A stretch of 64,000 nt of DNA from Sphingomonadales bacterium (lineage in GTDB: Bacteria > Pseudomonadota > Alphaproteobacteria > Sphingomonadales > Sphingomonadaceae), in assembly GCA_038228865.1 (NCBI GenBank), contig JBBROX010000001.1, forward strand, positions 368,657 through 432,656. The letters are read 5' to 3'. Made by a program: the position numbers and the translations under genes. Below the pieces are notes generated by a model. The model saw only the letters and a program-made list of their open reading frames with translations, ran no database searches and was not told the origin of the DNA. Of this stretch, positions 11,534 through 33,470 are shown piece by piece; position 1 is the first letter of the stretch; the number at the start of each line of letters is the position of its first letter.

Positions 11534-11550
11534 AGTATGATTATGCAAGT
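11534..11550 (+). promoter_or_regulatory. Candidate island operator, copy 1 (AGTATGATTATGCAAGT)
   Basis: 27 bp upstream of the ATG at 11578; overlaps a plausible sigma70 -10 (TATGAT, 11536-41) with TTGCAA at 11512-17. Confidence 0.65.
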
Positions 11551-11577
11551 TTACGGCCATAATAACTTTAGGTGCTC

Positions 11578-12579
11578 ATGCCGCTACCCACCGTCCTGAC
11601 AAGAAATCTCGAACTTCCCGCAATCGCGGCACCGATGTTTTTGATTTCAGGACCGGAAATGGTCGTTGCCGCCTGTAGATCGGGCGTGATCGGCTCGTTT
11701 CCGACGCCGAATGCGCGGACGCCGGAGATTCTCGATCAGTGGATGGAGCAGATTTCCGGTTCCTTGGCTGTCGATGGCAACGCCGCCTCTTGGGCTGCCA
11801 ATCTGGTGGTGCATCCTTCGAACAGCCGCCTTCCTTCCGATCTCGAATGCGTTTTGAAACATAAGCCGCCGCTGATCATCACCGCGCTCGGCAGCCCGGC
11901 GCGCGTGATCGATGCGATCCACAGTTATGGCGGGTTGGTGTTCGCAGACGTCAATTCCGTCAGCTTCGCCCGAAAGGCGGCGGCAGCAGGTGTGGATGGG
12001 CTTGTTCTTGTTGCCGCAGGGGCGGGGGGGCATACGGGGCACACGGTCGGCTTTGCCTTTGTCGAGGAGGTGCGCGCTTTCTGGGACGGCCCGATTGTGC
12101 TGGGCGGTGCAATCTCGACCGGTCAGGCAATCCGAGCCGCCGAGGTGCTGGGAGCCGACCTCGCCTATCTGGGCACGTCGCTCATAGCATGTTCGGAAAG
12201 CATGGCCGATCCGGCCTACAAGCAAATGGTGGTGGATGCCGACGCTGAATCGATCGTTCCGTCGAAGGGCATTACCGGCGTCACCGCCAATTGGCTCAGG
12301 CCCAGCCTGATCGCGGCAGGATACGATCCCGCCAATATGCCCGAGGACAAGAAGCCCAATTTCGAAAACGCCCAGGACGATGCCAAGGCGTGGAAGAACG
12401 TCTGGTCGGCGGGTCAGGGCGTCGGCGCGGTAAGAAGCTGTGCACCGCTGGCCGATGTCATCGCTCGTCTGAAAGAAGAATATGATGCTGCAGCCGGCTT
12501 GCCGGCATTCGGCGCGAAGGAGAGAAGCAATGACCGTCGAATTGGTCGAGACCATAAAGTCCACGATCCAGTCCACTGA
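11578..12579 (+). CDS. Nitronate monooxygenase / 2-nitropropane dioxygenase family flavoenzyme
   Basis: AAPMFLIS, GAGGHTG, LGGAISTG, AYLGTSLIA, WSAGQGVG motifs; first gene of the island operon. Confidence 0.88.
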   Translation: MPLPTVLTRNLELPAIAAPMFLISGPEMVVAACRSGVIGSFPTPNARTPEILDQWMEQISGSLAVDGNAASWAANLVVHPSNSRLPSDLECVLKHKPPLIITALGSPARVIDAIHSYGGLVFADVNSVSFARKAAAAGVDGLVLVAAGAGGHTGHTVGFAFVEEVRAFWDGPIVLGGAISTGQAIRAAEVLGADLAYLGTSLIACSESMADPAYKQMVVDADAESIVPSKGITGVTANWLRPSLIAAGYDPANMPEDKKPNFENAQDDAKAWKNVWSAGQGVGAVRSCAPLADVIARLKEEYDAAAGLPAFGAKERSNDRRIGRDHKVHDPVH

Positions 12580-14026
12580 GAACCCTTATCTGAAGGGGGC
12601 TTGGCGCCCGACGCACAATGAGTGGAACGCCGCGTTCGCGAACGGCGATGTCGAGGTTATCGGCACCATCCCCGATGACATCGACGGGGTCTATGTGCGC
12701 ACCGGCGAGAACCAGATCAACGAGCCGATCGGCCGCTATCACCCGTTCGACGGCGACGGGCTGATCCATTCAATTTCATTCAAGAACGGCCGCGCGAGCT
12801 ATCGCAGCCGGTTCGTCCGTACCAAGGGATTCCAGGCCGAACAGGAAGCCGGACGTTCGCTATGGGCCGGGCTGATGGAGCCGCCGCACAAATCGATCCG
12901 TCCCGGCTGGGGCGCGCAGGAATGGCTGAAGGATTCGTCCTCCACCGACGTCGTCGTGCACGCTGGCAAGATCCTTTCGACATTCTACCAGTGCGGTGAG
13001 GGCTACCGGCTCGATCCGTTCACGATGGAACAGTACGGCACAGAGGGCTGGGTGCCGCTCGATGGCATTTCGGCGCATTGCAAGACAGACGAGGCGACCG
13101 GGGAGTTGCTGTTCTTCAACTACTCGAAGCATGCACCGTACATGCATTATGGCGTGGTCGGGTCGGACAACCGGCTGAAGCATTATGTCCCGATTCCGTT
13201 GCCGGGGCCGCGCCTGCCGCATGACATGGCGTTCACCCCGAACTATTCGATCCTGAACGACATGCCACTCTATTGGGCGCCGGAGCTTTTGGAAAAAGGG
13301 CTGCACGCAGTCCAGTTCTATCCCGACCAGAAGACGCGCTTTGCGGTCATTCCCCGTTTCGGCCAGCCGGAGGATATTCGCTGGTTCGAGGCCGAACCGA
13401 CCTACACGCTCCACTGGCTGAATGCCTGGGAGGAAGGCGACGAGATCGTGCTCGACGGCTATTTCCAGGAAGAGCCGATGCCCAAATCCTATCCGAACGC
13501 GCCCAAGGGGCTCGAGCGGATGATGGCCTATCTCGACCAGCAACTGCTCAAGCCCAAGCTGCACCGCTGGCGGTTCAATCTGAAAACGGGTGGGACGGTC
13601 GAGGAGCGGCTCGACGATCGAATCCTGGAATTCGGGACGATCAACCAGAAATTTGCGGGTCAAAAATACCGATATGCTTACAGCGCAATTCCGGAGCCGG
13701 GCTGGTTCCTGTTTCGCGGCCTGGTCAAGCACGACCTCGAGACCGGCACGAGCCAGTCGATCGAATTCGGCGAAGGCCGGTTCGGCAGCGAAGCGCCGTT
13801 CGCGCCGCGCATCGGTGCGGTCGACGAGGACGACGGCTACATCGTTTCGTTCGTCGCCGACGTGAACACCGACAAATCCGAATGCGTGCTGATCGACGCC
13901 AAGAACTTCGGAGCGGGGCCGGTATGCCGGATCGTTTTGCCCGAACGGATTTGCGCGGGAACCCATTCCACCTGGGCAAGCGGCAATGACATCGGGATGC
14001 CCGAAAATATCGTGCTGGCGGCCTAA
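12530..14026 (+). CDS. Carotenoid oxygenase (RPE65/CCO/LSD) family dioxygenase, paralog 1
   Basis: AAGGAG RBS before ATG 12530; HPFDGDG; four iron-ligand His motifs: SAHCKTD, LPHDMAFT, TLHWLNAW, GTHSTW; FGSEAPF, EDDGY. Confidence 0.93.
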   Translation: MTVELVETIKSTIQSTENPYLKGAWRPTHNEWNAAFANGDVEVIGTIPDDIDGVYVRTGENQINEPIGRYHPFDGDGLIHSISFKNGRASYRSRFVRTKGFQAEQEAGRSLWAGLMEPPHKSIRPGWGAQEWLKDSSSTDVVVHAGKILSTFYQCGEGYRLDPFTMEQYGTEGWVPLDGISAHCKTDEATGELLFFNYSKHAPYMHYGVVGSDNRLKHYVPIPLPGPRLPHDMAFTPNYSILNDMPLYWAPELLEKGLHAVQFYPDQKTRFAVIPRFGQPEDIRWFEAEPTYTLHWLNAWEEGDEIVLDGYFQEEPMPKSYPNAPKGLERMMAYLDQQLLKPKLHRWRFNLKTGGTVEERLDDRILEFGTINQKFAGQKYRYAYSAIPEPGWFLFRGLVKHDLETGTSQSIEFGEGRFGSEAPFAPRIGAVDEDDGYIVSFVADVNTDKSECVLIDAKNFGAGPVCRIVLPERICAGTHSTWASGNDIGMPENIVLAA

Positions 14027-14027
14027 G

Positions 14028-15722
14028 GTGATTGCAGCGGGGGAGGAGAGGCGTGCGCAATGTCGGGCAAGCGGGTGGTGGGGTGACACGACGCTGGGCG
14101 ACATGTTCGTGGCGAATGCGAGAGCGTTTCCAGATCGCCCGGCGCTGATTGATGCGCCCAACCGGGGCGACATCGCGTTCGGTGATCCGCGGCGGTTCTC
14201 CTATGCCGAAATGCTTGCCGAGGTGGAGCGACTAGCGGGTGCGTTGCTGGCGGGCGGGGTCGCCAAGGACGACGTCGTCATGGTGCAGCTGCCCAACATC
14301 AGCGAACTGGTGAACCTCTATATGGCGGCGGCGCTGATCGGCGCTGTCATCAGTCCGGTCGCGGTGCAGTATCGGTCGCACGAGCTGTCGGGCATGATCG
14401 GTCTCGTCAAACCCAGGGCCTTTGTCTGCGCAACCCGGATGAAGGGCTGCGACCATGTTGGCACAGTGCGGCCGTTGCTCGGCAATGCCGTCCGGCTGAT
14501 GACCGTCGGGCCGGATGCGCCGGTCGACGCAGTCGATCTGTCCACAGCGGCCGCGCAAGATGACATGTTTGCGGCGCATCAGGCCGCGCATCCGGTCGAT
14601 GCCGACGACCTCTTTACGATCTGCTGGACCTCGGGGACGACCGGCGTGCCCAAGGGCGTGCCGCGCAGCCACAACCACTGGGTCGCCATTTCGCCTGGTA
14701 CCTATGAATCGGCACGGCTGCGCGACGGCGATATCATGCTGAACCCGTTCCCGCTGATCAACATGGCCAGTATCGGTGGCGTGACGATGAGCTGGCTCAA
14801 GCGGGCGGGCACGATGGTGCTGCACCACCCGTTCGACCCCAAGGTCTTTCTGGCGCAGATTGCAACTGAGCGTCCGCACTTTACCATCGCGCCGCCTGCC
14901 GTGCTCAACATGCTGCTGCAGGATGAAGCGCTGCTCGCCGAGATCGATCTGTCGAGCCTGCGGACGATCGGTTCGGGTTCGGCACCGCTGGCACCGGCAA
15001 TGGTCAAGGGGTTTCAGGACCGGTTCGGCATCATGGTCATCAACCTGTTCGGATCGAACGAGGGCATGGCGCTGGTCACCGGGCCCGATGATGTTCCCGA
15101 TCCGGAGGAACGCGCCCGCTATTTCCCGCGCGCGCCGCTGTTCTCGCCGCCTTACGGATCGGGCCGGGCCACAAACATCGAAACCCGACTGGTCCCGCCG
15201 AAAGGGGGCAGCGCAATTACCGAAAACGGTGTTTCGGGCGAACTGCAGATCAAGGGGCCGACCCTGTTCGAAGGATATTACGGCGCGCCGGAACAGACGG
15301 CCGCTGCCTTCACCGAGGACGGTTTTTTTAAGACAGGCGATTTGTTCGAAATTGCAGGAAACGGACGATTTTACGAGTTCGTCGGACGCTGCAAGGATCT
15401 CATCATCCGTGGCGGCGTCAACATCGCGCCGGAAGAACTCGACCAGCTGCTGGGCGGCCATCCCAAGCTTCAAGAGGCCTGCGCGTTTTCGCTGCCCGAT
15501 CCCGTCATGGGTGAGCGGGTCGGGGTGGCGGCGGTGCCGCGCGCCGGCGAAACCATCGCGCTCGAAGACGTGACCTCCTGGCTGAAGGCGCGGGATCTGG
15601 CGGTGTTCAAGCTGCCCGAGCGGCTTTTCGTTTTCGACGAATTGCCGCGAAACGTGACGAATAAGGTGATGCGGGGCGACGTGCGCGACCGCGCGCTGGC
15701 CATGCTGAAAATGGACGATTGA
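14028..15722 (+). CDS. Class I adenylate-forming enzyme (acyl/aryl-CoA ligase)
   Basis: WTSGTTGVPKGV, FGSNEG, FFKTGD, GRCKDLIIRGGVNI motifs. GTG start at 14028 inferred. Confidence 0.9.
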   Translation: MIAAGEERRAQCRASGWWGDTTLGDMFVANARAFPDRPALIDAPNRGDIAFGDPRRFSYAEMLAEVERLAGALLAGGVAKDDVVMVQLPNISELVNLYMAAALIGAVISPVAVQYRSHELSGMIGLVKPRAFVCATRMKGCDHVGTVRPLLGNAVRLMTVGPDAPVDAVDLSTAAAQDDMFAAHQAAHPVDADDLFTICWTSGTTGVPKGVPRSHNHWVAISPGTYESARLRDGDIMLNPFPLINMASIGGVTMSWLKRAGTMVLHHPFDPKVFLAQIATERPHFTIAPPAVLNMLLQDEALLAEIDLSSLRTIGSGSAPLAPAMVKGFQDRFGIMVINLFGSNEGMALVTGPDDVPDPEERARYFPRAPLFSPPYGSGRATNIETRLVPPKGGSAITENGVSGELQIKGPTLFEGYYGAPEQTAAAFTEDGFFKTGDLFEIAGNGRFYEFVGRCKDLIIRGGVNIAPEELDQLLGGHPKLQEACAFSLPDPVMGERVGVAAVPRAGETIALEDVTSWLKARDLAVFKLPERLFVFDELPRNVTNKVMRGDVRDRALAMLKMDD

Positions 15723-15726
15723 ACCC

Positions 15727-16887
15727 TTGAAAAACACCTATCTACACGATGCCGTCCGCACGCCGCGCGGCAAGGCTAAGCCCGATGGCGGCCTGGCGGG
15801 TTTCTCGCCGCAAGAACTGGTCCGGCAACAGGTCGATGCGCTGCGGCTGCGTGTCGGGGAGAGCGCCTCCAGCCCCGACATTCTGCTGCTGGGCTGCGTC
15901 GGGCAAGTGGGAACGCAGGGCGGCCATATCGCGCTTGTCTCCAAGTTGCATGCCGGCCTGCCCGATGCGACAGCAGCCCACTCGATTAACAACTATTGTG
16001 CCTCGGGCCTGTCGGCGATCGGTCAAGCGGCGGCGCTGGTCGAAATCGGACAGGCCGGGTCCGCTTTGGCGGGCGGCGTCGAGATGATGAGCCAGGTTCC
16101 CTTCATGGGCGACCGCGCGAGCTTTTATGAGGACGCGAGCTTCCCGCACCGTGCACGCTATATCCCGGTCGTGCTGGCGGCCGACCGCTTGGCCAATGCC
16201 GAAGGGATCGGTCGCGCCGAACTGGACATCGTTGCACTCGCGTCGCAGCGAAAGGCCGGTGCGGCTGAAGGCGACCGAGTCCTGCAACGCTCGCGGATCG
16301 CCACCGCAACGCTTTCCGGCGAAGAATGCATCCGCCCGGCGACCACTGCGGAGGGGCTGGCGGCGATGTCGCCATCCTTCGGCGGCTTGCAGGCTCAATA
16401 TGCCGATGCTCTGAACGGCGCGACATTCGAGCCGTTGCACTCGGTGTCGCACGCGCCACCGGTTTGCGACGGTGCCGGTCTGGCGCTGGTCGGTGGCAAG
16501 GATCTGACACCGAAGCCACGCGCCCGCATCCTTGCCTTTGCCGAGAGCGGCGGCGATCCGGAAGCCTCGCTGACGGCGGGCATCGCTGCGATGGAAAAGG
16601 TACTGGCGCGTGCTGGCCTGTCACTGGCCGATATGGACCGGATTGAGTTCATGGAAGCGTTCGCGGTGACCATCGCCAAGTTTCTGCGCGAATATCCGGT
16701 CGATCCGGAGCGGGTAAACGTGGGCGGTGGGCACATCGCCAAGGGACATCCGATGGGAGCGAGCGGCGCGATTCTGACATCGACTCTGCTCGACTGCCTC
16801 GATGCCTGTGATGGCAGCCTAGGCCTTGTCGTGTTGAGCGGCGCGTCGGGCGTCGGCGCTGCAATGATTGTCGAACGGCTGAACTGA
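15727..16887 (+). CDS. Thiolase-family protein lacking the C-terminal catalytic Cys
   Basis: NNYCASGL (first Cys), MEAFA and GHPMGASG present; the usual LCxGGG motif reads LSGASG. Confidence 0.85.
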   Translation: MKNTYLHDAVRTPRGKAKPDGGLAGFSPQELVRQQVDALRLRVGESASSPDILLLGCVGQVGTQGGHIALVSKLHAGLPDATAAHSINNYCASGLSAIGQAAALVEIGQAGSALAGGVEMMSQVPFMGDRASFYEDASFPHRARYIPVVLAADRLANAEGIGRAELDIVALASQRKAGAAEGDRVLQRSRIATATLSGEECIRPATTAEGLAAMSPSFGGLQAQYADALNGATFEPLHSVSHAPPVCDGAGLALVGGKDLTPKPRARILAFAESGGDPEASLTAGIAAMEKVLARAGLSLADMDRIEFMEAFAVTIAKFLREYPVDPERVNVGGGHIAKGHPMGASGAILTSTLLDCLDACDGSLGLVVLSGASGVGAAMIVERLN

Positions 16888-18606
16888 ATGACGACCGCGC
16901 TGAACGACCTGATCGCCAAACACGCGGGAACGCTGGCGGCGGCGATCGATGCAGTGGAGACCCGCAAGAACTGGAGCCCGTTCAGGGATTCGCCCAGCGG
17001 GAAATTCCATGCGCCCGGCGCATCGGAGGCGGGCAAGGCAGCGTTCGACGCGCAGCTGGGCCGACCTTTCGATCTCGACCAGCCCGGCATTGTCGCCCGC
17101 ACCGGTGCCGAGGTGTCGCCCTTTACCCGCCAACCGCTTGGAATCGATTATCCGGTCAGCGATCCCGCCATGCTCATCGCCGCAGCCAGCGCGGCGATGG
17201 CCGGTTGGCGCAAGGTCGCGCCCGAGGCGCGCATCGCCCTATGCCTCGAAATGGCCACGCAACTCTACGCGCGCAATTTCGAGATGGCGCACAGCGTGAT
17301 GCACGTCGCCGGTCAAAGCTATACGCAAGCCTTCAGCGGCAGCGGTCCCAACGCGCTCGATCGCGGGATCGAAGCGCTGGCCTATGCGGCGAAAGCCATG
17401 CGCGATGTCGTGCCCAGCGCGCGGTGGAACCGCACGTTCGGCAAAGAGGACGTGTCGCTCGACAAGCATTATACCCTGGTCCCGCGCGGGATCGGCCTGG
17501 TCATTTGCTGTGCGTCATTCCCCACTTGGAATGCCTATCCGGCGATGTTTGCAAATCTGGCGACCGGCAATCCGGTGATCGTCAAACCGCATCCAATCGC
17601 CGTCTTGCCGATGGCGATCGTGGTGCAGCAATGCCGCAGGGCTCTTGCCGCATTCGGCTGTGATCCGAACCTCGTAACACTGGCGGTCGACACACTCGAC
17701 GCGCCGGTCGCGCAGCATTTCATCGACCACCCCGCGGTGCAGATCATCGATTTCACCGGAAGCCCGCGTTACGGCGGCCATCTTGAGCGGACGATTACCG
17801 GCAAATTGTTGTTCACCGAAACCGCCGGGCTCAATTCGGTCGTGCTGGACTCCTGTGACGATCTGGCGGCGACCGCCACCGCGATTGCGCGCGCAACGAG
17901 CCTGTTTTCGGCGCAAATGTGCACCAGTCCGCAGAACGTCTATGTGCCGGCAAAGGGAATCGAGACCGGCAGCGGGCATGCCTCTTTCGACGAGGTGGCG
18001 ACGGCACTGGTGGATGCGATCGACGCGATTGCCGACAATCCAGTAATGGCGGCAGGTATCATGGGGGCAGTACAAGCCGAACAGAGTTGCGAGATCGTGC
18101 GCGGGCTCGCCGTTCGCGCTGCGCAAACGCCCGGAGCACGCATCCTGCGCCAACCGACGCCTTATCTGCATCCCGATTTTCCCGATGCGCGAACGATGAC
18201 GCCGCTTGTGGTGGCGCTGCCTGCCGACAATGCGGCGCTCTACGCTGAGGAACACTTCGGCCCGGTCCTGTTTGTCATCGCCGCTGCCGATGGCGATGAT
18301 GCGGTGAGCGAAGCTACCGCTCTGGCGCATACGCACGGTGCGATCTCGTCCTATCTCTATTCCACGGACGACGCGTTCATCGACCGATCGCTCGACGCCT
18401 ATGCGGAATCGGGCATGAACCTATCGATCAACCTACACGGGGCAATGTGGGCCAATTTTGCCGCTGCCTATAGCGATTATCACGTCACTGGCCTGAACCC
18501 GGCGGGTAATGCGTGCCTCGCCGACCTGGCCTTCGTCACGAACCGTTTCCGTATCGTCCAGCACCGTCGTCCTGCGGTGGGGGAAGGGGAGAGCCATGCC
18601 GCATAG
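16888..18606 (+). CDS. PaaN-type aldehyde dehydrogenase family protein
   Basis: CCASFPTWNAYP, LATGNPVIVKPHP, FTGS, ETAGLNSVV, SLFSAQMCTSPQN, EEHFGP, AAYSDYHVTGLNPAGNA, as I recall the PaaN clade. Confidence 0.85.
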   Translation: MTTALNDLIAKHAGTLAAAIDAVETRKNWSPFRDSPSGKFHAPGASEAGKAAFDAQLGRPFDLDQPGIVARTGAEVSPFTRQPLGIDYPVSDPAMLIAAASAAMAGWRKVAPEARIALCLEMATQLYARNFEMAHSVMHVAGQSYTQAFSGSGPNALDRGIEALAYAAKAMRDVVPSARWNRTFGKEDVSLDKHYTLVPRGIGLVICCASFPTWNAYPAMFANLATGNPVIVKPHPIAVLPMAIVVQQCRRALAAFGCDPNLVTLAVDTLDAPVAQHFIDHPAVQIIDFTGSPRYGGHLERTITGKLLFTETAGLNSVVLDSCDDLAATATAIARATSLFSAQMCTSPQNVYVPAKGIETGSGHASFDEVATALVDAIDAIADNPVMAAGIMGAVQAEQSCEIVRGLAVRAAQTPGARILRQPTPYLHPDFPDARTMTPLVVALPADNAALYAEEHFGPVLFVIAAADGDDAVSEATALAHTHGAISSYLYSTDDAFIDRSLDAYAESGMNLSINLHGAMWANFAAAYSDYHVTGLNPAGNACLADLAFVTNRFRIVQHRRPAVGEGESHAA

Positions 18607-19033
18607 TGTCGATGACTTTGTCGGTGCCTGGTCGCTCGTCGACTGGCGGATCGAATACAGCGACGGCGGCGTCACACGACCCTTCGGCACAGCGGCGCAT
18701 GGCTACATCGTCTATGCTGCCAACGGGATCATGGTCGCCAACATCGCCAAGGGCGAGCGCGACACCTTTGGTTTGCCCAATGCCCGCAATGCCGATGCGG
18801 GACAGAAGGGCGCGGCGTTCGACAGCTATTTTGCCTATGCCGGTCCCTGGCGGATAGAGGGCGAAGAGGTCGTTCACGCCGTTACCATGTCGTTGTTTCC
18901 CGACATGACCGGCACCGAGCAGCACCGCCTTGCCGAGTTCGACGGCAAGGGCGGGCTGACGCTTTCGGCGCATGAGCCGCTGAAGGACGGGGCCAGTCGC
19001 CATCACATATTGCAATGGCAACGATCCCGATAA
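18596..19033 (+). CDS. Lipocalin-like domain protein
   Basis: ATG at 18596; FVGAWSLVDW (GxW) motif, PFG..GYIVY..NG.M and YFAYAGPW, typical of Lipocalin_5. Confidence 0.75.
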   Translation: MPHSVDDFVGAWSLVDWRIEYSDGGVTRPFGTAAHGYIVYAANGIMVANIAKGERDTFGLPNARNADAGQKGAAFDSYFAYAGPWRIEGEEVVHAVTMSLFPDMTGTEQHRLAEFDGKGGLTLSAHEPLKDGASRHHILQWQRSR

Positions 19034-19081
19034 GCAATGCCGGACGGGCAGAATTAGGCAAAAACAGAATAGGAGGGTGAT

Positions 19082-20455
19082 TTGGTACAGGGTTCGAGTG
19101 AACGCCAGCGGGGCCGGTCTCAAACCAAAATCGCTCTGGTCGGTCTGTTAGGATGGGCCGCTCTGCTTGCGACAGGTGCATCGGCCCAGATCCAGCAGCC
19201 GACGGCAGCAGTTCCAGGCCCTCGAGAGTCGGACCCGGTGGCGATAGGCTGGATGCGCGGCAGTCCGCCGCCGCGCGACAAGGTCATCCGGTTCGAGGAC
19301 GGCTCCTACGGCCGGTTTCCGCAAACCCGTTGGTCGTTCGCGCATTATCGGGAGCTTTTTCCCACCGCCAGAGTCTCGCGCGGAAAGGACCCTGTTTCTG
19401 CCTTGCCCGTAAGGCTGCGCACCGACCTGGATGGCGTCATCTTCACGCCGCTGGGCAAGCAAGATCCTATGACCTGGGCGCAGGCGCTTGAGGCGGTTTA
19501 TGCCGATGGCGTTATCGTTCTGCACCGCGGCCGGATCGTCTATGAGCGGTATATGGGGGTCATGGACGGCGACCGGCCGCACATCGCCTTTTCGGTGTCG
19601 AAGTCGTTTTCCGGAACGCTGGCCGAAATGCTCATTGCCGAAGGAAAGCTCGATCAGAACGCGTTGATTGCCCGCTACATTCCGGAACTATCGGCAAGCG
19701 GTTTTGGCGACGCCACTGTCAGGCAGATGCTCGACATGACGACCGGCCTCGACTATTCGGAAAACTATTCCGACCCGAAGGCCCAGGTCGTAAACTACGC
19801 CTGGGCAGCGGGCGCGGCCCCGAGGCCGGCGGGGTATGCCGGGCCGAGAGACATCTTCGATTTCCTGAAAACCGTTCCCAAATCGGGCAGTCACGGCGAC
19901 CAGTTTACCTATCGCACAATCAACACCGAAGTGTTGGGGATCCTGCTTTCCCGCGTGACTGACAAGACGTTACCAAGTCTTCTGAGTGAACGGATCTGGT
20001 CAAAGCTGGGCGCGGAACACGATGCCGATTTTGTCGTGGATTCGAGCGGGACCGCCATTGCAGGCGGCGGGTTGAACATGACCCTGCGCGATGCCGCACG
20101 GTTCGGGGAAATGCTGCGTCTGGGCGGAAGGTTCAACGCGCAGCAGATCGTGCCTGCAGCAGCCGTCGCGTCGATCCGGCGGGGCGCAAGTCAGGCCGAC
20201 TTTGCCAAGGCCGGATACGCCACGTTGCCGAACTGGTCCTACCACAGCCAATGGTGGGTGAGCCACAACCGGAACGGTGCCTTCTCTGCACGCGGCATCT
20301 ATGGTCAGGCGATCTACGTCGACCCGAGGGCCGAAATGGTGATCGTGCGCTTCGCGTCCAATCCAAAAGCGGCGAACGCGAACTTCGATCCCATTTCGCT
20401 CCCGGCGTATCAGGCTATTGCCGATCGGCTGATGCAGCCGACACGAACCAAATAG
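19082..20455 (+). CDS. Serine hydrolase, beta-lactamase class C/NylB-like, probably exported
   Basis: SVSK (SxxK), FTYRTINT, GGGLNMTLRDAARFG, ARGIYGQ; N-terminal hydrophobic signal-like segment. Confidence 0.88.
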   Translation: MVQGSSERQRGRSQTKIALVGLLGWAALLATGASAQIQQPTAAVPGPRESDPVAIGWMRGSPPPRDKVIRFEDGSYGRFPQTRWSFAHYRELFPTARVSRGKDPVSALPVRLRTDLDGVIFTPLGKQDPMTWAQALEAVYADGVIVLHRGRIVYERYMGVMDGDRPHIAFSVSKSFSGTLAEMLIAEGKLDQNALIARYIPELSASGFGDATVRQMLDMTTGLDYSENYSDPKAQVVNYAWAAGAAPRPAGYAGPRDIFDFLKTVPKSGSHGDQFTYRTINTEVLGILLSRVTDKTLPSLLSERIWSKLGAEHDADFVVDSSGTAIAGGGLNMTLRDAARFGEMLRLGGRFNAQQIVPAAAVASIRRGASQADFAKAGYATLPNWSYHSQWWVSHNRNGAFSARGIYGQAIYVDPRAEMVIVRFASNPKAANANFDPISLPAYQAIADRLMQPTRTK

Positions 20456-25311: not shown

Positions 25312-25328
25312 AATATGATTATGCAACT
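25312..25328 (+). promoter_or_regulatory. Candidate island operator, copy 4 (AATATGATTATGCAACT)
   Basis: 15/17 match; 81 bp upstream of the SDR ATG at 25410. Confidence 0.62.
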
Positions 25329-25409: not shown

Positions 25410-26375
25410 ATGGCAATTCCAAAAATGCTGCAGGGCCTTTCAAAGACACTCAATTTCTACGGTCGGTTTGCGCCATCGTTCACGCGGATCGGCTATGTAG
25501 CCCGCTTGCTTCCGCTCCGCCCGGTATCTGCCGATTTCACCGGTCAAAGCTGGCTGGTGACGGGTGCGACCGGCGGTATCGGCAAGGCGACGACGCTTCT
25601 CGCTGCATCCAAGGGCGCACGGGTATTGGCGGTGGGTCGCAACCGCGATGCGCTGGCGGCATTGGTCGCCGAAAGCGCGGGTCTCAAAGGCTCGGTCATC
25701 CCGATCGAATGCGATCTATCCTCGATTGCGGCGATCGACGAGATGGCACGCGGCGGTGAGATTTCGACGCCCATCGATGTGCTGGTCAATAACGTCGGCA
25801 TCCTGAACCGCCTGTATTCCGAGACGTCCGAAGGCTTCGAAACGACCTATGCGACAAGCCTTCTGGGGCATTTCCATTTGACCGAGACGCTGGCCGAGAT
25901 CGGGCGTCTCGCCGACCGATCGGTTCTCATCAATGTGGCGTCGGGCGGCATGTTCAATGTGCCGCTCAAACTGCCGATGCTCAATCAGAAGGAGAAGGGG
26001 TTCAACGGTTTCGCATCCTATGCGTCGCACAAACGCGCTCAGGTGGCCCTGGCCGATTACTGGCGGGCCAAGTTCGGCGCGCTCAACCTGCGTGCCTATG
26101 CCATTCATCCGGGCTGGGCCGATACGGCCGGTGTGCAATCGTCTTTGCCGACATTCCGCAAAATCCTGCGGCCCGTCTTGCGCAACGCCGAGCAGGGGGC
26201 CGACACCATCATCTGGCTGGCCGCCGAACGGCCCGATGCAGTCGATGATCGCGTCTGGTTCGACCGCAAGGAGCGGACCACCCATCCGTTTCCACATACC
26301 AGACAAGCAATGACGACGGTACCCGATCTGGTCGCGAAGCTTGATGCCGACAGCAAGCGGGCGTTGGCTGGTTAA
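25410..26375 (+). CDS. SDR family oxidoreductase (DHRS12-like)
   Basis: ATG at 25410; TGATGGIG, VNNVG, YASHK, HPGWADT.G, GADTIIWLA. Confidence 0.88.
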   Translation: MAIPKMLQGLSKTLNFYGRFAPSFTRIGYVARLLPLRPVSADFTGQSWLVTGATGGIGKATTLLAASKGARVLAVGRNRDALAALVAESAGLKGSVIPIECDLSSIAAIDEMARGGEISTPIDVLVNNVGILNRLYSETSEGFETTYATSLLGHFHLTETLAEIGRLADRSVLINVASGGMFNVPLKLPMLNQKEKGFNGFASYASHKRAQVALADYWRAKFGALNLRAYAIHPGWADTAGVQSSLPTFRKILRPVLRNAEQGADTIIWLAAERPDAVDDRVWFDRKERTTHPFPHTRQAMTTVPDLVAKLDADSKRALAG

Positions 26376-26441: not shown

Positions 26442-26458
26442 GCTTGTATAATCAAACC
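26442..26458 (-). promoter_or_regulatory. Candidate island operator, copy 5 (minus strand GGTTTGATTATACAAGC)
   Basis: 13/17 match; 43 bp upstream of the thiolase ATG; contains TATAAT on the plus strand. Confidence 0.5.
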
Positions 26459-26501: not shown

Positions 26502-27731
26502 ATGGTCTATGTTCTGGGCGGGTGGCAGAGCGACTACGCAAAGAATTGGGATCGCCACGGTATGGAACTGGCCGATGCGTTCTCGGAGGTGGTCCAGAAC
26601 GGTCTGGAGTCCGTCCATCTCGAGCCATCCGACGTCGAAGTCGGGCATGTTGGCAATTTCGTTGGTGACCTGTTTGCGGGGCAGGGCATGCTTGGCGGCT
26701 TTTTCGGGCTGGTCGATCCGGCTTTCAACGGATTGCCAACATCGAGGCACGAAGCCGCCTGCGCTTCGGGGAGTGTGGCGATTCTGGCGGCAACGGCCGA
26801 CATCGAGTCGGGCCGGTACGATCTGGCCTGTGTTGTCGGACTCGAGCTAATGCGCAACGTTTCGGGAGTCATTGCTGCGCAGCATTTGGGTGCTGCCGCT
26901 TGGGCCGGTCATGAATATCAGGATGCCACCTACGCGTGGCCGCGCGCTTTTTCCGATCTCGCGGAGGAATATGACCGGCGTTATGGGTTGTCCTATGAGC
27001 ATCTGATGGCGATTTCGCGAAACAACTTCGCCAATGGCAAGCTCAATCCCAATGCCCAGACGCGCAGCTACCAGTTTACGCCTGAAGCCTTCACGGCATC
27101 CGACGAGCACAATCCAGTTATTGAGGGGCGGACGCGCAAGATGGATTGCGGCCAGGTCAGCGATGGTTCGGCCGTGGTGTTTCTGGCGTCTGCAGAGCGC
27201 GCCGCAGACTATGCCCGCAAGCGTGGCATTCCGCTTGATTCCATACCGCGCATCACAGGCTGGGGACATCGTTCGGCCCCTATTTCCTACAGCGCGAAAA
27301 TCCGCGCGAGCGAAAACGAACCCTACGTGTTCCCGCAGGTCCACCGGGCAGCGATCGAAGCACGGACGCGCGCCGGACTGGCCGATGTGGCGCAGATCGA
27401 CGCGTTCGAAGTACACGACTGCTTTGCGATGACCGAGTATATGGCGATTGACCACCTCGGCATTACAACGCCCGGCGAGGCGTGGAAAGCGGTGGAAAGC
27501 GGTTCGATCGAAATCGGTGGCGCCAATCCGATCAACGCCTCGGGCGGCCTGATCGGTATGGGCCATCCGGTCGGCGCGACGGGCGTCCGCATGGTTCTCG
27601 ACGGCTACAAGCAGGTTACGGACACGGCCGGCGATTACCAGGTCGAAGGGGCACAGCGGCTGCAGACGCTCAACATCGGCGGGTCGACGACCACAACTGT
27701 GAGCTTCATCGTAGAAAAAATGGCGGCGTGA
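26502..27731 (+). CDS. SCP2-type thiolase (acetyl-CoA acetyltransferase family)
   Basis: RHEAACASGS, EVHDCF, GHPVGATG, TLNIGGS (SCP2-thiolase pattern). Confidence 0.9.
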   Translation: MVYVLGGWQSDYAKNWDRHGMELADAFSEVVQNGLESVHLEPSDVEVGHVGNFVGDLFAGQGMLGGFFGLVDPAFNGLPTSRHEAACASGSVAILAATADIESGRYDLACVVGLELMRNVSGVIAAQHLGAAAWAGHEYQDATYAWPRAFSDLAEEYDRRYGLSYEHLMAISRNNFANGKLNPNAQTRSYQFTPEAFTASDEHNPVIEGRTRKMDCGQVSDGSAVVFLASAERAADYARKRGIPLDSIPRITGWGHRSAPISYSAKIRASENEPYVFPQVHRAAIEARTRAGLADVAQIDAFEVHDCFAMTEYMAIDHLGITTPGEAWKAVESGSIEIGGANPINASGGLIGMGHPVGATGVRMVLDGYKQVTDTAGDYQVEGAQRLQTLNIGGSTTTTVSFIVEKMAA

Positions 27732-27795
27732 GCGACAGCGTTTTCGATTGCGCGGCGCAGTTCCTGCTTGCCGCCGATATCCGGATCGTCCTGCG

Positions 27796-29586
27796 ATGAC
27801 GGCGGCTTCCGCGCCGTTCAGAGACGTGAACTTCATGCCCGTCGATCTCGACGTTGCGGAGCATGAAGACGGCACCATCTCGTTGCGGACGAACCTGCCG
27901 CTTGAAGAATATGACGCCAATTTGCCTCGGGTCCTTGCCGCGCGTGCCGCGCTGGAAGGCGATAAGAAGGCGCTGGCGATCCGGAATGCTGCAGGGGTTT
28001 GGGAGCACACGAGCTACACGCACTTCAAACGCGACCTCGACGCGGTCACGCAGTGGTTGCTGGATAACATCCCGCGCGGAACGGCGATCCTGCTGATCGG
28101 TCCCAACACGCCCGCCTATGCGACCCTGACCTTCGCGGCCTATGCGGCCGGCGTCATCGTTTGTCCCGTAGGCATGGCCAGCCTCCAATCGGCGGCGGGC
28201 GAAGCGCGCTTGCAGCACGTCATTGCCAAGGCCAAGCCCAGCGCAATCTTTGCCGATGGGACGCTCGTCATCCAGCGGCTGATCGCCCATGTTGCCGATC
28301 CCTCGGTACTGATCATCGCACCCGACCCCGAGAGCTATTCCGGCGCCGTCGTCGCATGGACCGAGCTGGTCGGCACGACCGCCACGCCCGACGTCGCGGC
28401 GGCTATCGACAATTTGGATACGACCGTGCCGGCGTCGTACATGATGACGTCCGGATCGACAGGGTTGCCCAAGTTGGTCGCGACCTCACTGGACAATATT
28501 GCCGCTGTCACGATCCAGAGCACGATCATCTTCGGCCCCGAAGTCTATCAGGGAAACATAGTCGACTGGCTGCCGTGGCATCACGCTGCGGGGGCGGGGG
28601 TGCTGCGCACTACGCTGTTCAATGGCGGTAGCCTCTACATCGACGGCGGAAAGCCGATGCCGACATTGTTCGATGAGACGATCAGGAACCTCCGCGAAAT
28701 CCCGGTCCCGTACTTTGCCAACGTGCCGCAGGGCTTTGCCATGCTGGTCGATGCGATGGAAAAAGATGCCCAGCTGCGGCAGAGCTTTTTCCGGGATATG
28801 CGGCTGATGCTCTACGGCGGCGCGGGCCTGCCCCAGCCGGTCTACGACCGTCTGCAGGCGCTGGCCGTCGCGGAGACCGGCCACCGCATCCATATGTCGA
28901 GCGGCTATGGCATGACCGAGACGGTCACCGGCTGCATTGCCATCCATTTTCCGACGGACCGCGTCGGTATAGGCCTGCCGCCACCGGGGATCGAGGTAAA
29001 GCTGGTGCCCAACGGGAGCCGGTACGAAGTGCGCCTGCGTGGGCCGAACGTCATGATGGGCTATGTCGACGAACCCGAGCAGACGGCCAAGGCGTTCGAC
29101 GACGAAGGCTTTTACCGGACAGGCGACCTCGCCAATTTTCATGACCGCAACAATCCGGGCGAAGGTTTGTATTTCGCCGGCAGACTGGCCGAGGAGTTCA
29201 AACTGTTAACCGGCAGCTGGGTTTACGGTGGGCAGGTGCGCGACGCGGTCCTCGAACAGCTCGACGGCGATGTGTCGGAAATCGTGCTGTGCGGAGAGAA
29301 CCGGGAGTATCTGACGGTGATGGCGTGGCCGAAGTCCTCCGACGACGGCACGCTGCTCGCGCGCATCACCGAAAAACTGAAACTGTATAACGCGCGCGGC
29401 ACGGGAGCGTCGGTTGGTATCCGGCGCGTCGTACTTCTGGAATTGCCGCCCAATCCTGTTGGGGGCGAAGTTTCGGACAAGGGCACGATCAATCGCCGTG
29501 CCGTGCTAACCAACCGCGCCGACATCCTCGAACAACTCTATGCCGCTGATCCGGGCACGCACATCGGTATCGTCCAGGGAAACTAG
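27796..29586 (+). CDS. Feruloyl-CoA synthetase-like acyl-CoA ligase
   Basis: MTSGSTGLPK, DWLPWHH, SGYGMTET, RGPNVMMGY, FYRTGD, GRLAEEFKL.TGSWV, GEVSDKGTIN. Confidence 0.85.
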   Translation: MTAASAPFRDVNFMPVDLDVAEHEDGTISLRTNLPLEEYDANLPRVLAARAALEGDKKALAIRNAAGVWEHTSYTHFKRDLDAVTQWLLDNIPRGTAILLIGPNTPAYATLTFAAYAAGVIVCPVGMASLQSAAGEARLQHVIAKAKPSAIFADGTLVIQRLIAHVADPSVLIIAPDPESYSGAVVAWTELVGTTATPDVAAAIDNLDTTVPASYMMTSGSTGLPKLVATSLDNIAAVTIQSTIIFGPEVYQGNIVDWLPWHHAAGAGVLRTTLFNGGSLYIDGGKPMPTLFDETIRNLREIPVPYFANVPQGFAMLVDAMEKDAQLRQSFFRDMRLMLYGGAGLPQPVYDRLQALAVAETGHRIHMSSGYGMTETVTGCIAIHFPTDRVGIGLPPPGIEVKLVPNGSRYEVRLRGPNVMMGYVDEPEQTAKAFDDEGFYRTGDLANFHDRNNPGEGLYFAGRLAEEFKLLTGSWVYGGQVRDAVLEQLDGDVSEIVLCGENREYLTVMAWPKSSDDGTLLARITEKLKLYNARGTGASVGIRRVVLLELPPNPVGGEVSDKGTINRRAVLTNRADILEQLYAADPGTHIGIVQGN

Positions 29587-29592
29587 ACCTAC

Positions 29593-30387
29593 ATGGAAAT
29601 CGCGCATCTCTTTCTCGCCAATGCGGCCATTCTTGTCGCCGCGTTCGCCACGCTCTGGTTGATCTGTCTTGGTTTGAAGGATGTGACGCCGGTCGACAGT
29701 TCCTGGGCACTCGGGATGGTCGTCATGGCAGTCAGCACATTCTTGCAGACCGACGGCAATCCCGACCGCAAGCTCCTCCTGCTGACGTTATGCGCCGCAT
29801 GGGGCATCCGCCTTGGCTGGTACATGTTGTGGCGCTGGCGTCATCATGGGCCGGACCGCCGCTATGTGAAGCTGCTCGACAAGGCGAAGCAAAATCGCGG
29901 CTGGGGTTTCGGCAAGGCTTCGCTCCTGCTCGTCTTTGCCACCCAGGCACCGTTGCTTTTTATCGTCTGCCTGCCGGTTCAGCTCGGCCAGATCGACGCT
30001 GGCCCGGTCCTGGGCCCCATCGGCTATATCGGCGCGGCGCTGGCCATATTCGGGATCATCTTCGAATCGCTGGCGGATTACCAGCTCGTGCTCTTCAAGG
30101 CGGATGCGGCCAACACCGGTAAGGTGATGGATAGCGGCCTATGGCGTTACACACGGCATCCCAATCATTTCGGCGATGCCTGTGCGTGGTGGGGAATCTA
30201 CCTTGTTGCTGCCGAAACAGCGACGGGTGTCTGGTCGATTGTCGGGCCGATCCTGTTGACCTGGACGCTGATGAAATGGTCCGGTGCACCCACGGTCGAA
30301 GGCAGCATGCGCCGAAAGAAGCCCGACTATGAGGACTATATCCGGCGGACAGCAGCCTTCTTCCCCTGGCCGCCCCGGCAGGCATGA
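29593..30387 (+). CDS. DUF1295 / steroid 5-alpha-reductase-like membrane protein
   Basis: Multiple TMs; WGIRLG, DRRY, ESLADYQL, GLWRYTRHPNHFGD. Confidence 0.88.
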   Translation: MEIAHLFLANAAILVAAFATLWLICLGLKDVTPVDSSWALGMVVMAVSTFLQTDGNPDRKLLLLTLCAAWGIRLGWYMLWRWRHHGPDRRYVKLLDKAKQNRGWGFGKASLLLVFATQAPLLFIVCLPVQLGQIDAGPVLGPIGYIGAALAIFGIIFESLADYQLVLFKADAANTGKVMDSGLWRYTRHPNHFGDACAWWGIYLVAAETATGVWSIVGPILLTWTLMKWSGAPTVEGSMRRKKPDYEDYIRRTAAFFPWPPRQA

Positions 30388-30400
30388 TCGACGGTCGCGC

Positions 30401-31462
30401 GTGACGTACCAAGTCATCCAGTGGGCAACCGGCGCGATGGGCAGGACATGCCTGCAGGCCGTGATCGATCATCCTGCGATGGAGCTCGTCGGCCTGTACG
30501 TCTATAGCGAGGCAAAGGCAGGCAAGGACGCCGGCGCTATCGCGCGGCGCGACTCGGTGGGTGTCGTGGCTACTTCCGATATCGACGAAATCCTTGCGCT
30601 CGATGCCGATGTCGTCATCCACTGTGCGCGGATATTGCCGCCGTTTGGATCGCATGATGCGGAGATCATCCGGCTGCTGGAGAGCGGCAAGAACGTCATT
30701 AGCATCAATGGCTACAGCGATCCGGGGCGGTGGGACAGTGCGCGGCGTGCGGTGCTTGCGGCAGCGTGCGCAAAGGGTAACTCGACGCTCATGGGCGCGG
30801 GTCTCAATCCCGGGTTTGCGGCCGAGCAACTGGCCGTCGTCGCGACCGGGGCCTGTTCGCGTGTCGACCGGGTGGACATCACCGAATATGTCGATTGCCG
30901 CGCAGTCAAACATCCCGAATATGTCTTCGGCAGCCTCGGCTTTGCGTCCGATCCCGCAACGATCGATCCCAATGACGCCGACTGGGGACCCGCTGCCCTC
31001 ATGAACGGCATGTATCGCGAAGTGCTGTCGGCCATGGCAGAGCGGCTTAGCGTTCAGTTGGAAAGGGTTCAGACAGAACACCGTGTCTTCGCCGCAGCCA
31101 GCGATCTGGAAATCGCGGCCGGTGTGATTCCCCAAGGCCGCGTCAGCCACGTCAACTGGCGATGGGCGGGCTACGTCGGCGACCAGCGTCGGCTAACGCT
31201 ATCGATCCATTGGTTTATGGAAACGACACACCTTGCCAACGCGGCACCGCCGCTGTGGGAGATCGACATCGTTGGCCAACCTTGCGTACATTTGAAGATC
31301 GAGGTCGAGAAGCACCCGGAGGACCAGAGCCGGGTTACGGCCGAACAGCTCGGGCTGGCCGGTGCCGTGATCAATGCCATTCCGGTCGTCTGCGACGCGC
31401 CCAGCGGATTGTGTCTACGTCCGGTGGCTACACCCTATCGGGCAGACCTCGGCGGCTGGTAA
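30401..31462 (+). CDS. DapB-like Rossmann oxidoreductase (NAD(P)H-dependent amine dehydrogenase-like family)
   Basis: GTG at 30401; VIQWATGAMG, LLESGKNVIS, GAGLNPGF, VINAIPVVCDA.SG. Confidence 0.75.
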   Translation: MTYQVIQWATGAMGRTCLQAVIDHPAMELVGLYVYSEAKAGKDAGAIARRDSVGVVATSDIDEILALDADVVIHCARILPPFGSHDAEIIRLLESGKNVISINGYSDPGRWDSARRAVLAAACAKGNSTLMGAGLNPGFAAEQLAVVATGACSRVDRVDITEYVDCRAVKHPEYVFGSLGFASDPATIDPNDADWGPAALMNGMYREVLSAMAERLSVQLERVQTEHRVFAAASDLEIAAGVIPQGRVSHVNWRWAGYVGDQRRLTLSIHWFMETTHLANAAPPLWEIDIVGQPCVHLKIEVEKHPEDQSRVTAEQLGLAGAVINAIPVVCDAPSGLCLRPVATPYRADLGGW

Positions 31463-31470: not shown

Positions 31471-32379
31471 CTACGCCACCTCGGCATAGAATGCGGCAAA
31501 GGCTGCCTCGGCACCGGTGTGGGCACGAAGGCGATCCGCAGCGCCGATGTCGATGGCCCGTTCGGCCAGCCAAGCCGGGTCGTTCCCGTGGGGACCAACT
31601 AGCGCGCTTTCGACCGGGACGACGCGCTTGATATACTGACCTGCCGCCACCCACATGCTGCCAGTTTCCGTGCATTCCGGACCCGATAGCCATACCGCCG
31701 CCGCTGCCACTTCGTCCGGGCTCAATTTGGCATCCGGCGCGGCGTTGGTCCGGGTGGTCATGGTTGTCGCGGCATAGGGCATCAGGATGTTCACGAGGAT
31801 GCCATTGCGGCGCTGTTCGTGCGCGAGCGACAGAGCAAAAGCGTTCAGCGCGCCCTTCGACGCCGCATAGGCGGCCCTGCCTCGGACACCATAGACTCCG
31901 GCCGTGGACGAAACGAACAGGATGCGCGGGTTATCGGACTTCATCAGATACGGCAGCGCCGCCCGCACGATCGCGGTATTCGCAAAGAAGTTGATGGCCA
32001 TAACCTGTTCGAGGCCGCCATCGCTCAGCGTGCCCACCTTCTCGGCAGGCCCCTCGATCGCGGCGTTGAGAATCAGCGCATCCAGTCTCCCGAATTTATC
32101 GACTGCGGCATCGACCATCGCCACTGCGGCACCGGGCGCCTGAACGTCGTGATGATCCGCCGCCGCGCTCAATCCTTCCGCTGCCAGGTCCGCGACGATC
32201 TGATCGACGGGGGAGGGACCAGCGCCCGAAAACCTGTTGTTGATCAGGATTGCCGCGCCGTTGCGCGCGCAGGCTGTGGCGAAGGACTTACCCAGCCCTT
32301 TCGAGGCACCCGTTACCAGGATTGATCGGGCGCCGGGAAATGCGGTGTTTTGGTTGGTTGGCATGCCGTGAGTCTGCAT
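31471..32379 (-). CDS. SDR family oxidoreductase (MFE-2 / hydroxyacyl-CoA dehydrogenase-like)
   Basis: TGASKGLG, ILNAA, YAASKG, VNILMPYA.T.MT. Alternative start at 32364. Confidence 0.88.
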   Translation of the reverse strand: MQTHGMPTNQNTAFPGARSILVTGASKGLGKSFATACARNGAAILINNRFSGAGPSPVDQIVADLAAEGLSAAADHHDVQAPGAAVAMVDAAVDKFGRLDALILNAAIEGPAEKVGTLSDGGLEQVMAINFFANTAIVRAALPYLMKSDNPRILFVSSTAGVYGVRGRAAYAASKGALNAFALSLAHEQRRNGILVNILMPYAATTMTTRTNAAPDAKLSPDEVAAAAVWLSGPECTETGSMWVAAGQYIKRVVPVESALVGPHGNDPAWLAERAIDIGAADRLRAHTGAEAAFAAFYAEVA

Positions 32380-32384
32380 CCGGC

Positions 32385-32401
32385 AGTATGATCATGCAAG
32401 C
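32385..32401 (+). promoter_or_regulatory. Candidate island operator, copy 6 (AGTATGATCATGCAAGC)
   Basis: 15/17 match; spans the stop codon of the HxlR gene and lies directly upstream of the SDR. Confidence 0.6.
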
Positions 32402-33369
32402 GACAAGGCATCGTTTGTTGGTACCAATTTCGCGTCGAATCTGGCGCCGTCGATCTGGAGCGTAAACGCGACATCCTTCGCCTGAATCGGTACGCTGCAC
32501 TCGGAACAAACCACCTCCGGTTTCAGTGAATTCCCACACGCAGTGTGCGTCAGAAGGATCGGCGGACCTTCGGGCGAACCATAGTATTTGTCTCCCCATT
32601 CCATCAGCAGCAGCAAGGCCGGGAAATAGGCGGCGCCTTTACGTGTGGTCCGATATTCGAAGCGCGGCGGCGCGGACGCGTATTGGACCTGCTTGACGAC
32701 GCCGAATTCCTCCAGCCAAGCTAGTCGTTCAGCGAGGATATTGGTTGCGATCGCCGTGTCCTGGCGAATCTCCTCAAACCGGTGGATGCCAGTGAAAATC
32801 GACCGCATGATGAGACTGGCCCACCGATCCCCGAGCAGCTGGGCGGCCTGTTCAAAGATCCTGGAGCCATCTTCGGTGCTGGCCCGCTGTTGGCGACGGC
32901 GGCTGTAAATCGGTGCCATCCACCCGACTCCCGGCCCTTCTTTCCAGTCGATCTCGCCTATGTTGAACGACGTTTTGCAGTTGTGACACGACGGAACAGG
33001 CAGGAAGTTGTTCCCGCAAACCTCGTGTTTGAGCTCGACCGAAATATTGCTCGATTGCTCACCCCATTCTATTTCCCACCTAAGGAGAATGAGGGAAACA
33101 GGGTATAAGTCCCGACCCTTCTTGGTCAGAATATATTCGTATCGCGGGGGGCGAGTATTATAGAGTGATTTTTCCACCAGGCCGTTGGCAACGAGTTTTT
33201 TGAGGCGGTCGCTCAGCAACGCTCTCAGCAGCCCTGTGGCACTGAGAAAATCGTCGAACTTGCGGGCACCGAGCAAACTTGCTTCCAAAATGAGCAAGGT
33301 CGACGTGTCGCCGACCACTTCCAGCGCCCGCCAGATCGAACAGGTTTTGATGAGAGTTTTGCCGTGCAT
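32392..33369 (-). CDS. Tandem (double) HxlR/DUF24 winged-helix transcriptional regulator
   Basis: Two HxlR units: CSIWRALEVVGD..LLSDRLKKLV..PPRYEYILTKKG and QLLGDRWASLI..RFEEI..ILAERL..PPRFEYRTTRKG; each followed by HxxCG...CxxC. Confidence 0.9.
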   Translation of the reverse strand: MHGKTLIKTCSIWRALEVVGDTSTLLILEASLLGARKFDDFLSATGLLRALLSDRLKKLVANGLVEKSLYNTRPPRYEYILTKKGRDLYPVSLILLRWEIEWGEQSSNISVELKHEVCGNNFLPVPSCHNCKTSFNIGEIDWKEGPGVGWMAPIYSRRRQQRASTEDGSRIFEQAAQLLGDRWASLIMRSIFTGIHRFEEIRQDTAIATNILAERLAWLEEFGVVKQVQYASAPPRFEYRTTRKGAAYFPALLLLMEWGDKYYGSPEGPPILLTHTACGNSLKPEVVCSECSVPIQAKDVAFTLQIDGARFDAKLVPTNDALSLA

Positions 33370-33453
33370 TGGGGCGGTCTAACGCGGGTAGGGCCGGGGG
33401 TCTACGTGACGCCCTTGCAAGCGGGAAAGACAGGTCCATCCGGCCACGTCGTT

Positions 33454-33470
33454 ACTTGCATAGTCGAACT
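33454..33470 (-). promoter_or_regulatory. Candidate island operator, copy 7 (minus strand AGTTCGACTATGCAAGT)
   Basis: 14/17 match; between the divergent regulator and oxygenase paralog 2. Confidence 0.6.

Follow-up and report, generated by a model that had tools for sequence, protein, structure and literature searches.

An asymmetric 17-bp element at the promoters of a carotenoid-cleavage-oxygenase island as the predicted operator of a single-chain tandem HxlR regulator in Alphaproteobacteria

A stretch of 64,000 nucleotides from a Sphingomonadales genome (the window; C1:368657-432656 of an assembly of 3.26 Mb in 72 contigs) carries a catabolic gene island in which a 17-bp motif recurs seven times, with at least one copy at each transcription unit. 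The sole regulator encoded in the island is a protein with two fused HxlR domains, and the motif is proposed to be its operator, through which it would act as a repressor of the island. We put the probability of this joint claim at about three in four. Taken by itself, the operator assignment is held with more confidence and is very probably correct, and repression is the favoured sign of the regulation. The observations are of the motif itself, of how specific and how conserved it is, of its association with the regulator gene and of its geometry at promoters. Comparison of genomes strongly supports the operator assignment, and repression is the predicted role of this single-chain HxlR pseudo-dimer. 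Together with its asymmetric site and a catabolic regulon conserved across several alphaproteobacterial orders, it has no earlier description in the literature searched.

A sequence-only reading of the window had listed seven copies of the motif, and all seven were recovered at the positions and on the strands it gave (Table 1). It had placed each copy within about 90 bp of the start of a transcription unit, which is borne out by distances to the start codons of 5-85 nt. When up to three mismatches to the first copy were allowed, five matches occurred in the window, as against 0.03 expected from dinucleotide-preserving shuffles of the same DNA. A position weight matrix (PWM) was then trained solely on the seven island sites of this genome and scanned against the whole assembly. 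The island sites scored 20.2-28.9 bits, and only one extra site was added, AGTATGACTATGAAAGT at C13:1458(-) with 24.7 bits; the next-best match scored far lower (17.4 bits), leaving a clean gap. The sequence-only reading had seen no copy in the housekeeping flanks and had asked for a genome-wide scan for enrichment. The scan placed none in those flanks either; equal-scoring matches were rare, and the element proved over-represented and confined to few promoters, with eight sites of at least 20.2 bits per 3.26-Mb genome and seven of the eight inside 22 kb. Seven sites and one extra, set apart by a score gap, indicate that the motif is real, rare and limited to one functional gene set.

The eighth site precedes two genes, one of them SnoaL/LEH-like and paralogous to the island gene at 21708-22160, the other for an MFS transporter, and an IS6-type transposase adjoins it. 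That transposase, together with the derivation of the consensus by eye from the very sites it describes, could suggest that the copies are a chance or self-derived pattern, or the remnants of a mobile repeat. Such an origin was refuted by the shuffles and the score gap, by the recovery, with a matrix trained on this genome only, of independent sites in their hundreds at the orthologous promoters of other orders, and by the control loci and pattern counts given below; no flanking repeat structure was seen around the copies. The LEH-like/MFS pair occupies positions 643-3343 of contig C13 (L001 of this genome, G000), next to the transposase at the contig start. In a genome of the same genus (G208) the orthologous pair stands directly upstream of the operon that begins with a nitronate-monooxygenase-like (NMO) gene (L043, 6534-8700). 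It seems, then, that the island was split in this genome, either by the insertion sequence or by the assembly.

Conservation was followed first within the family, in a sample of 300 genomes in addition to this one, of which 23 encode a full-length tandem HxlR homolog (42-85% identity). Stretches of 20 kb around the regulator genes were scanned with the PWM. In 21 of the 23 genomes, sites of 16-27 bits were found upstream of orthologous units, namely SDR3, oxygenase 2/LEH, ligase 1/DapB-like, the receptor, thiolase 2 and NMO-oxygenase 1, and the remaining two carry degenerate variants at the expected place (GGTTAAGTTACGCAAGT and GGTTCAGGAATGCAAGC). In an intergenic alignment with G208, the motif copies stand out as conserved blocks amid diverged DNA. 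A wider scan, limited to one genome per species, yielded 280 loci with a relative of the regulator, and the best 80 of the 280 were analysed. These came from Sphingomonadales, from Caulobacterales (Phenylobacterium, Caulobacter, Maricaulis, Hyphococcus, Algimonas, Oceanicaulis and Marinicauda) and from Niveispirillum. At a threshold of 15 bits the PWM found 231 sites in these 0.92 Mb; the background of the PWM in this genome is a few sites per Mb. Each of the 80 loci has at least one site, situated between conserved genes, and in nearly all of them one site falls right after the regulator gene. Footprinting across orthologous islands, the check that the sequence-only reading had proposed, thus found the motif kept at orthologous promoters in other genera and orders, in distant genomes whose flanks have diverged.

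The motif was found only where the regulator gene is present. As controls, 25 stretches (approximately 0.47 Mb) around orthologs of the oxygenases were taken (59-74% identity; one split match was higher), 24 from regulator-negative genomes and one (L081) from a genome, G263, that has a distant homologue only; none of the 25 control loci contained a PWM site of 16 bits or more. Conversely, in the regulator-positive genome G028 a second oxygenase/thiolase locus is on a contig other than that of the regulator, and two strong sites (22.0 and 25.4 bits) lie there directly upstream of the genes. Matches to a strict pattern, RGTWYDDYWRTRMAAGY, were also counted in all 301 genomes. Those with a close ortholog of the regulator (12 in all, this genome plus 11; identity at least 59%) have 2-6 each, clustered within about 20 kb, and the 277 regulator-less genomes have 0-2, never clustered.

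These counts bear on whether the motif might instead mark the binding site of a regulator whose gene lies outside the island, or be a promoter element of a special kind, such as that of an alternative sigma factor, travelling with the genes. TTKCAT followed by TA 17 bp on does resemble a promoter by itself, and a motif that accompanies the regulator accompanies the island as well. The control loci and the remote locus in G028 point the other way, with regulator-negative oxygenase orthologs lacking the motif and a distant locus in a regulator-positive genome possessing it. The conserved positions cross the spacer and show a dyad axis, unlike those of promoters, and their orientation relative to the downstream gene varies between promoters. 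Moreover, no sigma factor or second regulator is conserved in approximately 100 clusters from three orders, and a search of the unassigned gaps of orthologous clusters for a second regulator found none; the gaps held only an MFS transporter, NTF2-like proteins, a metallophosphoesterase-like open reading frame and an esterase-like one. An external regulator or a travelling promoter element is accordingly rated improbable. The assignment of the motif to the tandem HxlR protein, made originally from the window, is now supported by three independent comparative tests: conservation across orders, co-occurrence with the regulator and the lack of any other conserved regulator.

The anatomy of the site was derived from 63 non-redundant sites with their flanks, and an independent set of 167 sites was also used. 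The consensus, t-n-RGTAYGRTTATGMAAGT-n-A, spans about 21 bp. Flanking positions that had not been used for selection were informative, with T(-1) in 111/167 sites and A(+19) in 103/167. A scan for dyad axes gave a single best axis at position 9 (T9). About this axis the pairs 3/15 (63/63), 8/10 (49/63), 7/11, 1/17 and -1/19 are complementary, and the pairs 2/16 (G/G, 59/63), 4/14 and 6/12 are identical rather than complementary. With its mixture of complementary and identical pairs, the site is a partial dyad, about 21 bp in length, in which certain positions are asymmetric and fixed. It had previously been called not palindromic; this stands for the fixed asymmetric positions and needs correcting for the partial dyad, which is centred on position 9 and reaches as far as T(-1) and A(+19). 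A perfect direct repeat, TATGAT-TATGCA with a 6-bp period, was also considered and was dropped, as the unselected flank positions favour the partial dyad. At the NMO promoters of four loci with a more distant regulator (L048, L049, L052 and L053; 42-47% identity) two copies stand head to tail at a period of 18 bp, and two molecules may therefore bind there cooperatively.

Promoter elements and transcription starts were assigned from hexamers only. Read in reverse orientation, the motif begins ACTTKCAT, and TA follows TTKCAT at exactly 17 bp in 17 of the 63 sites; other offsets gave mostly 0-5 sites, with 9 and 7 at two of them. The matching flank positions in the wider set are T(-9) (107/167) and A(-8) (77/167). 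This arrangement is found in the window at the second carotenoid cleavage oxygenase gene, CCO2 (TTGCAT-17-TAGGCG), and is kept in G208. At promoters in which TTKCAT serves as the -35 hexamer, the site would be centred near -29 and cover the spacer as well as this hexamer. In forward orientation, TTG precedes TATGMA by 17-18 bp in 11 of the 63 sites (SDR2 in the window, ligase 1 elsewhere). At SDR2, TTGCAT stands 17-18 bp ahead of the TATGCA of the motif, and at the NMO promoter a conserved TTGCAA (11512-11517) stands 18 bp ahead of its TATGAT; the site at 26442 contains TATAAT on the gene strand. Read towards the gene for the TonB-dependent receptor (TBDR), the site at 25201 places TTGCAC 18 bp before TTAGTT, a putative -35/-10 pair for the receptor operon, and the site at 25161 probably lies at or just downstream of the predicted transcription start of that operon. 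The overlap with -10-like hexamers, pointed out earlier from the window, was confirmed and extends to a -35 role (TTKCAT) in the opposite orientation. With starts placed by hexamers, the overlap of the candidate operator with the predicted -35, -10 or start is consistent and conserved in its geometry. Description of the motif as a pure -35 element was rejected, because conservation continues across the spacer and some of the sites stand in the opposite orientation to their gene.

Overlap with core promoter elements in either orientation favours repression by occlusion, and the sites occur in differing geometries, which one fixed activation geometry cannot explain. Activation was nevertheless weighed: the tandem HxlR protein might bind the motif and recruit or remodel RNA polymerase at promoters with the -35 inside the site, as an activator like Bacillus subtilis HxlR at hxlAB. 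The family includes such an activator (PDB 7bzd/7bzg, "HTH-type transcriptional activator HxlR"), the position and orientation of the site are fixed relative to the predicted -10 at most promoters, as for activator sites, and these -10 elements are poor ones (TAGnCn), as might be expected of promoters that need an activator. A centre near -29, between -35 and -10 with a normal 17-bp spacer, is however the position of a repressor and not of a class I or class II activator, and the spacer is not MerR-like. The sites at NMO, at SDR2 and at 25161, which lie in opposite orientation over the -10 or downstream of the predicted start, are incompatible with a single activation geometry. The closest redox-type relatives, YodB, HypR and QsrR, include repressors. 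On balance activation is considered unlikely.

The regulator matches Pfam HxlR (PF01638) with 125 bits (cut-off 20.8) in two separate stretches. Its PDB profile matches are all HxlR/DUF24 proteins, and profile and fold matches include PA1607, PA1374, YodB and HypR. The two HxlR winged-helix domains are 27% identical without gaps, and the two-domain architecture is kept in at least 616 homologs, whose source annotations are generic names only. In 31 homologs the two recognition helices are unlike each other and each is nearly invariant (LL[RK]ALLSDRL versus IATNILAERL). Cys10 is invariant in 31 sequences; it is found in domain 1 only, with no equivalent in domain 2, and is placed where the alignment to HypR residues 14-106 starts. 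Each half ends in an invariant H-x2-C...C-x2-C segment (residues 115-131 and 275-291), possibly a zinc knuckle. The AlphaFold (AF2) model, with a pLDDT of 82 and a pTM of 0.81, suggests by these global scores that the two halves adopt a defined arrangement. Two unlike reading heads on one chain would fit a partial dyad with fixed asymmetry. The earlier idea of a pseudo-dimer on an asymmetric operator thereby gained support and was sharpened to a partial dyad read by halves that share 27% identity and differ in their recognition helices. In three Phenylobacterium loci (L125, L129 and L142) a second HxlR2-like gene lies a few kb downstream of the first.

By its profile the protein belongs to the HxlR family, and it departs from the small homodimeric architecture and the palindromic operators of that family. 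HxlR proteins are small single-domain homodimers of about 100-150 aa, whereas the chain found here has 325 aa and two complete domains. The redox and electrophile sensors YodB, HypR and QsrR (HxlR/DUF24) share the Pfam family and the fold; Cys10 falls within the part of the chain aligned from HypR residue 14 and is a candidate counterpart of their conserved N-terminal Cys. They act through short, AT-rich operators placed over core promoters (the YodB box is TACT-N7-AGTA and that of QsrR GTATA-N5-TATAC). Those proteins, however, are homodimers of about 110 aa that act on true palindromes at detoxification genes; here a single chain of 325 aa with two unlike domains would act on an asymmetric site and control a large catabolic island, and the putative sensor Cys is present in one domain only. 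Each half of the regulator aligns end to end, C-terminal extension included, with the Pseudomonas aeruginosa proteins PA1607 (2f2e) and PA1374 (4gcv) (E values 8e-21 and 1e-20; TM to target 0.77). Both are single-domain proteins, and their extensions lack the H-x2-C...C-x2-C segment in the alignment.

The closest analogy in principle is with the two-domain SarA homologs of Staphylococcus (SarS, SarU and SarY), in which two winged-helix domains per chain mimic a dimer. SarS (1p4x) is a weak fold match to the regulator, at rank 50; the Sar proteins have no detectable sequence relation to it, belong to a different winged helix-turn-helix subfamily and are virulence regulators, in contrast to the tandem HxlR protein of a catabolic island. 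To our knowledge, no comparably defined asymmetric operator or conserved regulon has been described for SarS, SarU or SarY. The MarR-, IclR- and TetR-type repressors of sphingomonad aromatic clusters follow the same logic, being encoded in the cluster, with operators over the -35 and -10 of each operon and of their own gene, but they are of a different family and bind palindromic operators as homodimers. Literature searches on HxlR with carotenoid cleavage, pseudodimers, operators, duplication and sphingomonad repressors returned no description of the protein type, the motif or the regulon.

In the proposed mechanism, one polypeptide with two diverged HxlR winged-helix domains would form a built-in pseudo-dimer and recognise the partial dyad, in which fixed positions set one half apart from the other. 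The operator would be built into the core promoters of all transcription units of the island, with TTKCAT as the -35 hexamer and the site centred near -29 at most promoters, and TATGMA or TATGAT/TATAAT as the -10 at the others. Given this placement, the bound protein would exclude RNA polymerase and repress the whole catabolic island. The repressed set would comprise two carotenoid-cleavage-type oxygenases, CoA ligases, thiolases, dehydrogenases and the TBDR, and would extend to the unlinked LEH-like/MFS pair and probably to the gene of the regulator itself. Binding and repression are predictions, as is induction, which would be brought about by the substrate or a product of the pathway, possibly via the invariant Cys10 of domain 1. 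Some points weigh against this reading. The regulator gene sits in the island, so that co-occurrence cannot fully separate the regulator from the island; conservation of the motif could in part reflect promoter elements (TTGCAT as -35) instead of protein contacts; and B. subtilis HxlR is itself an activator, so that membership of the family does not fix the sign.

A further extension of the repressor model is tentative and is regarded as rather doubtful. Electrophilic unsaturated aldehydes produced by the island oxygenases might alkylate Cys10 and thereby release the protein from DNA, making it an asymmetric repressor that senses the pathway product. Because the reading heads are unlike, the operator would have a direction, and the 21-bp element could be used as a -35 one way and as a -10 the other, by which one protein would control divergent and tandem promoters with one type of site. 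If true, this would amount to a general design principle for single-chain pseudo-dimeric winged-helix regulators, kept across Alphaproteobacteria.

The gene map of the island (11.5-35.6 kb of the window) was obtained from Pfam and NCBIfam searches, and the candidate operator copies and predicted regulated units are collected in Table 1.

Table 1. Candidate operator copies and gene units of the island, in window positions.
Feature	Position	Strand	Remarks
Operator copy	11534-11550	+	Upstream of the NMO-CCO1-ligase 1-thiolase 1-aldehyde dehydrogenase-lipocalin-serine hydrolase operon; 27 nt to NMO (ATG 11578); kept in same-genus G208 with its -35 block
Operator copy	25161-25177	-	45 nt upstream of the TBDR start; conserved block in G208
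Operator copy, weaker	25201-25217	+	85 nt to TBDR; same place in G208 with 2 changes, flanks diverged
Operator copy	25312-25328	+	Upstream of SDR2 (ATG 25410), 81 nt
Operator copy	26442-26458	-	Upstream of the thiolase 2-ligase 2-DUF1295-DapB-like operon; 43 nt to thiolase 2; kept before thiolase 2 orthologs in G208, G007 and G028
Operator copy	32385-32401	+	Overlaps the HxlR stop codon, immediately before SDR3 (5 or 20 nt); position most widely kept in other taxa
Operator copy	33454-33470	-	Divergent HxlR/CCO2 region; 34/84 nt to CCO2/HxlR
Predicted regulated operon	11578-20455	+	NMO, CCO1 (RPE65 family), CoA ligase 1, thiolase 1, PaaN-type aldehyde dehydrogenase, lipocalin-like protein, beta-lactamase-fold hydrolase
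Predicted regulated operon	20918-25115	-	TBDR, two SnoaL/LEH-like proteins, SDR1
Predicted regulated unit	25410-26375	+	SDR2
Predicted regulated operon	26502-31462	+	SCP2-type thiolase 2, CoA ligase 2, DUF1295, DapB-like oxidoreductase
SDR3	31471-32379	-	Start more likely ATG 32364 than 32379 (comparison with G208)
Tandem HxlR regulator	32392-33369	-	Single chain, 325 aa
Predicted regulated unit	33505-35612	+	CCO2 and MaoC-type hydratase

Neither oxygenase reached the cut-off of any NCBIfam equivalog, so that the pathway is a substrate orphan; the closest solved relatives of the oxygenases are carotenoid 9,10-dioxygenase and lignostilbene dioxygenases. The module of oxygenase, SCP2-type thiolase, NMO-like protein and CoA ligase (11572-12579, 26502-27731 and 33505-34998 in the window) keeps its gene order across Sphingomonadales and Caulobacterales and is a widespread orphan pathway. 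No member reached an NCBIfam equivalog cut-off that would point to the substrate; the only ones to pass a cut-off were the thiolase (PRK06289, acetyl-CoA acetyltransferase) and the PaaN-type dehydrogenase, both under generic names.

The motif and the tandem HxlR protein offer a regulator-operator pair that is ready to be tested, for an uncharacterised family that numbers at least 616 homologs and occupies at least 280 genomic loci among Sphingomonadales, Caulobacterales and their relatives. The predicted full regulon of a widespread, substrate-orphan catabolic island of carotenoid-cleavage oxygenases is now defined, which allows the TonB receptor, the MFS transporter, the LEH-like proteins and other members to be placed in a single pathway, and the inducer may be used as a route to the pathway substrate. 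The pair would also provide a natural example of a fused winged-helix pseudo-dimer reading an intrinsically asymmetric site, and could serve as an orthogonal inducible switch for Alphaproteobacteria.

Two minor observations concern SDR3 and the naming of genomes. ATG 32379 of SDR3 is probably spurious, as G208 has a TAG-like triplet at that place (window 32362-32384). The alternative ATG 32364 has no Shine-Dalgarno sequence and lies about 7 nt after a predicted -10 (CAGACT), and the SDR3 transcript may therefore be leaderless. Two loci of the wider scan, L092 and L104, titled Hydrogenophaga intermedia MAG and Acidovorax delafieldii CCH4-A2, carry a sphingomonad-type cluster, and L104 agrees in gene order and in PWM site scores with the Blastomonas/Sphingomonas ursincola loci L105 and L106. 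The NCBI organism names of L092 and L104 are probably wrong, through contamination or misbinning.

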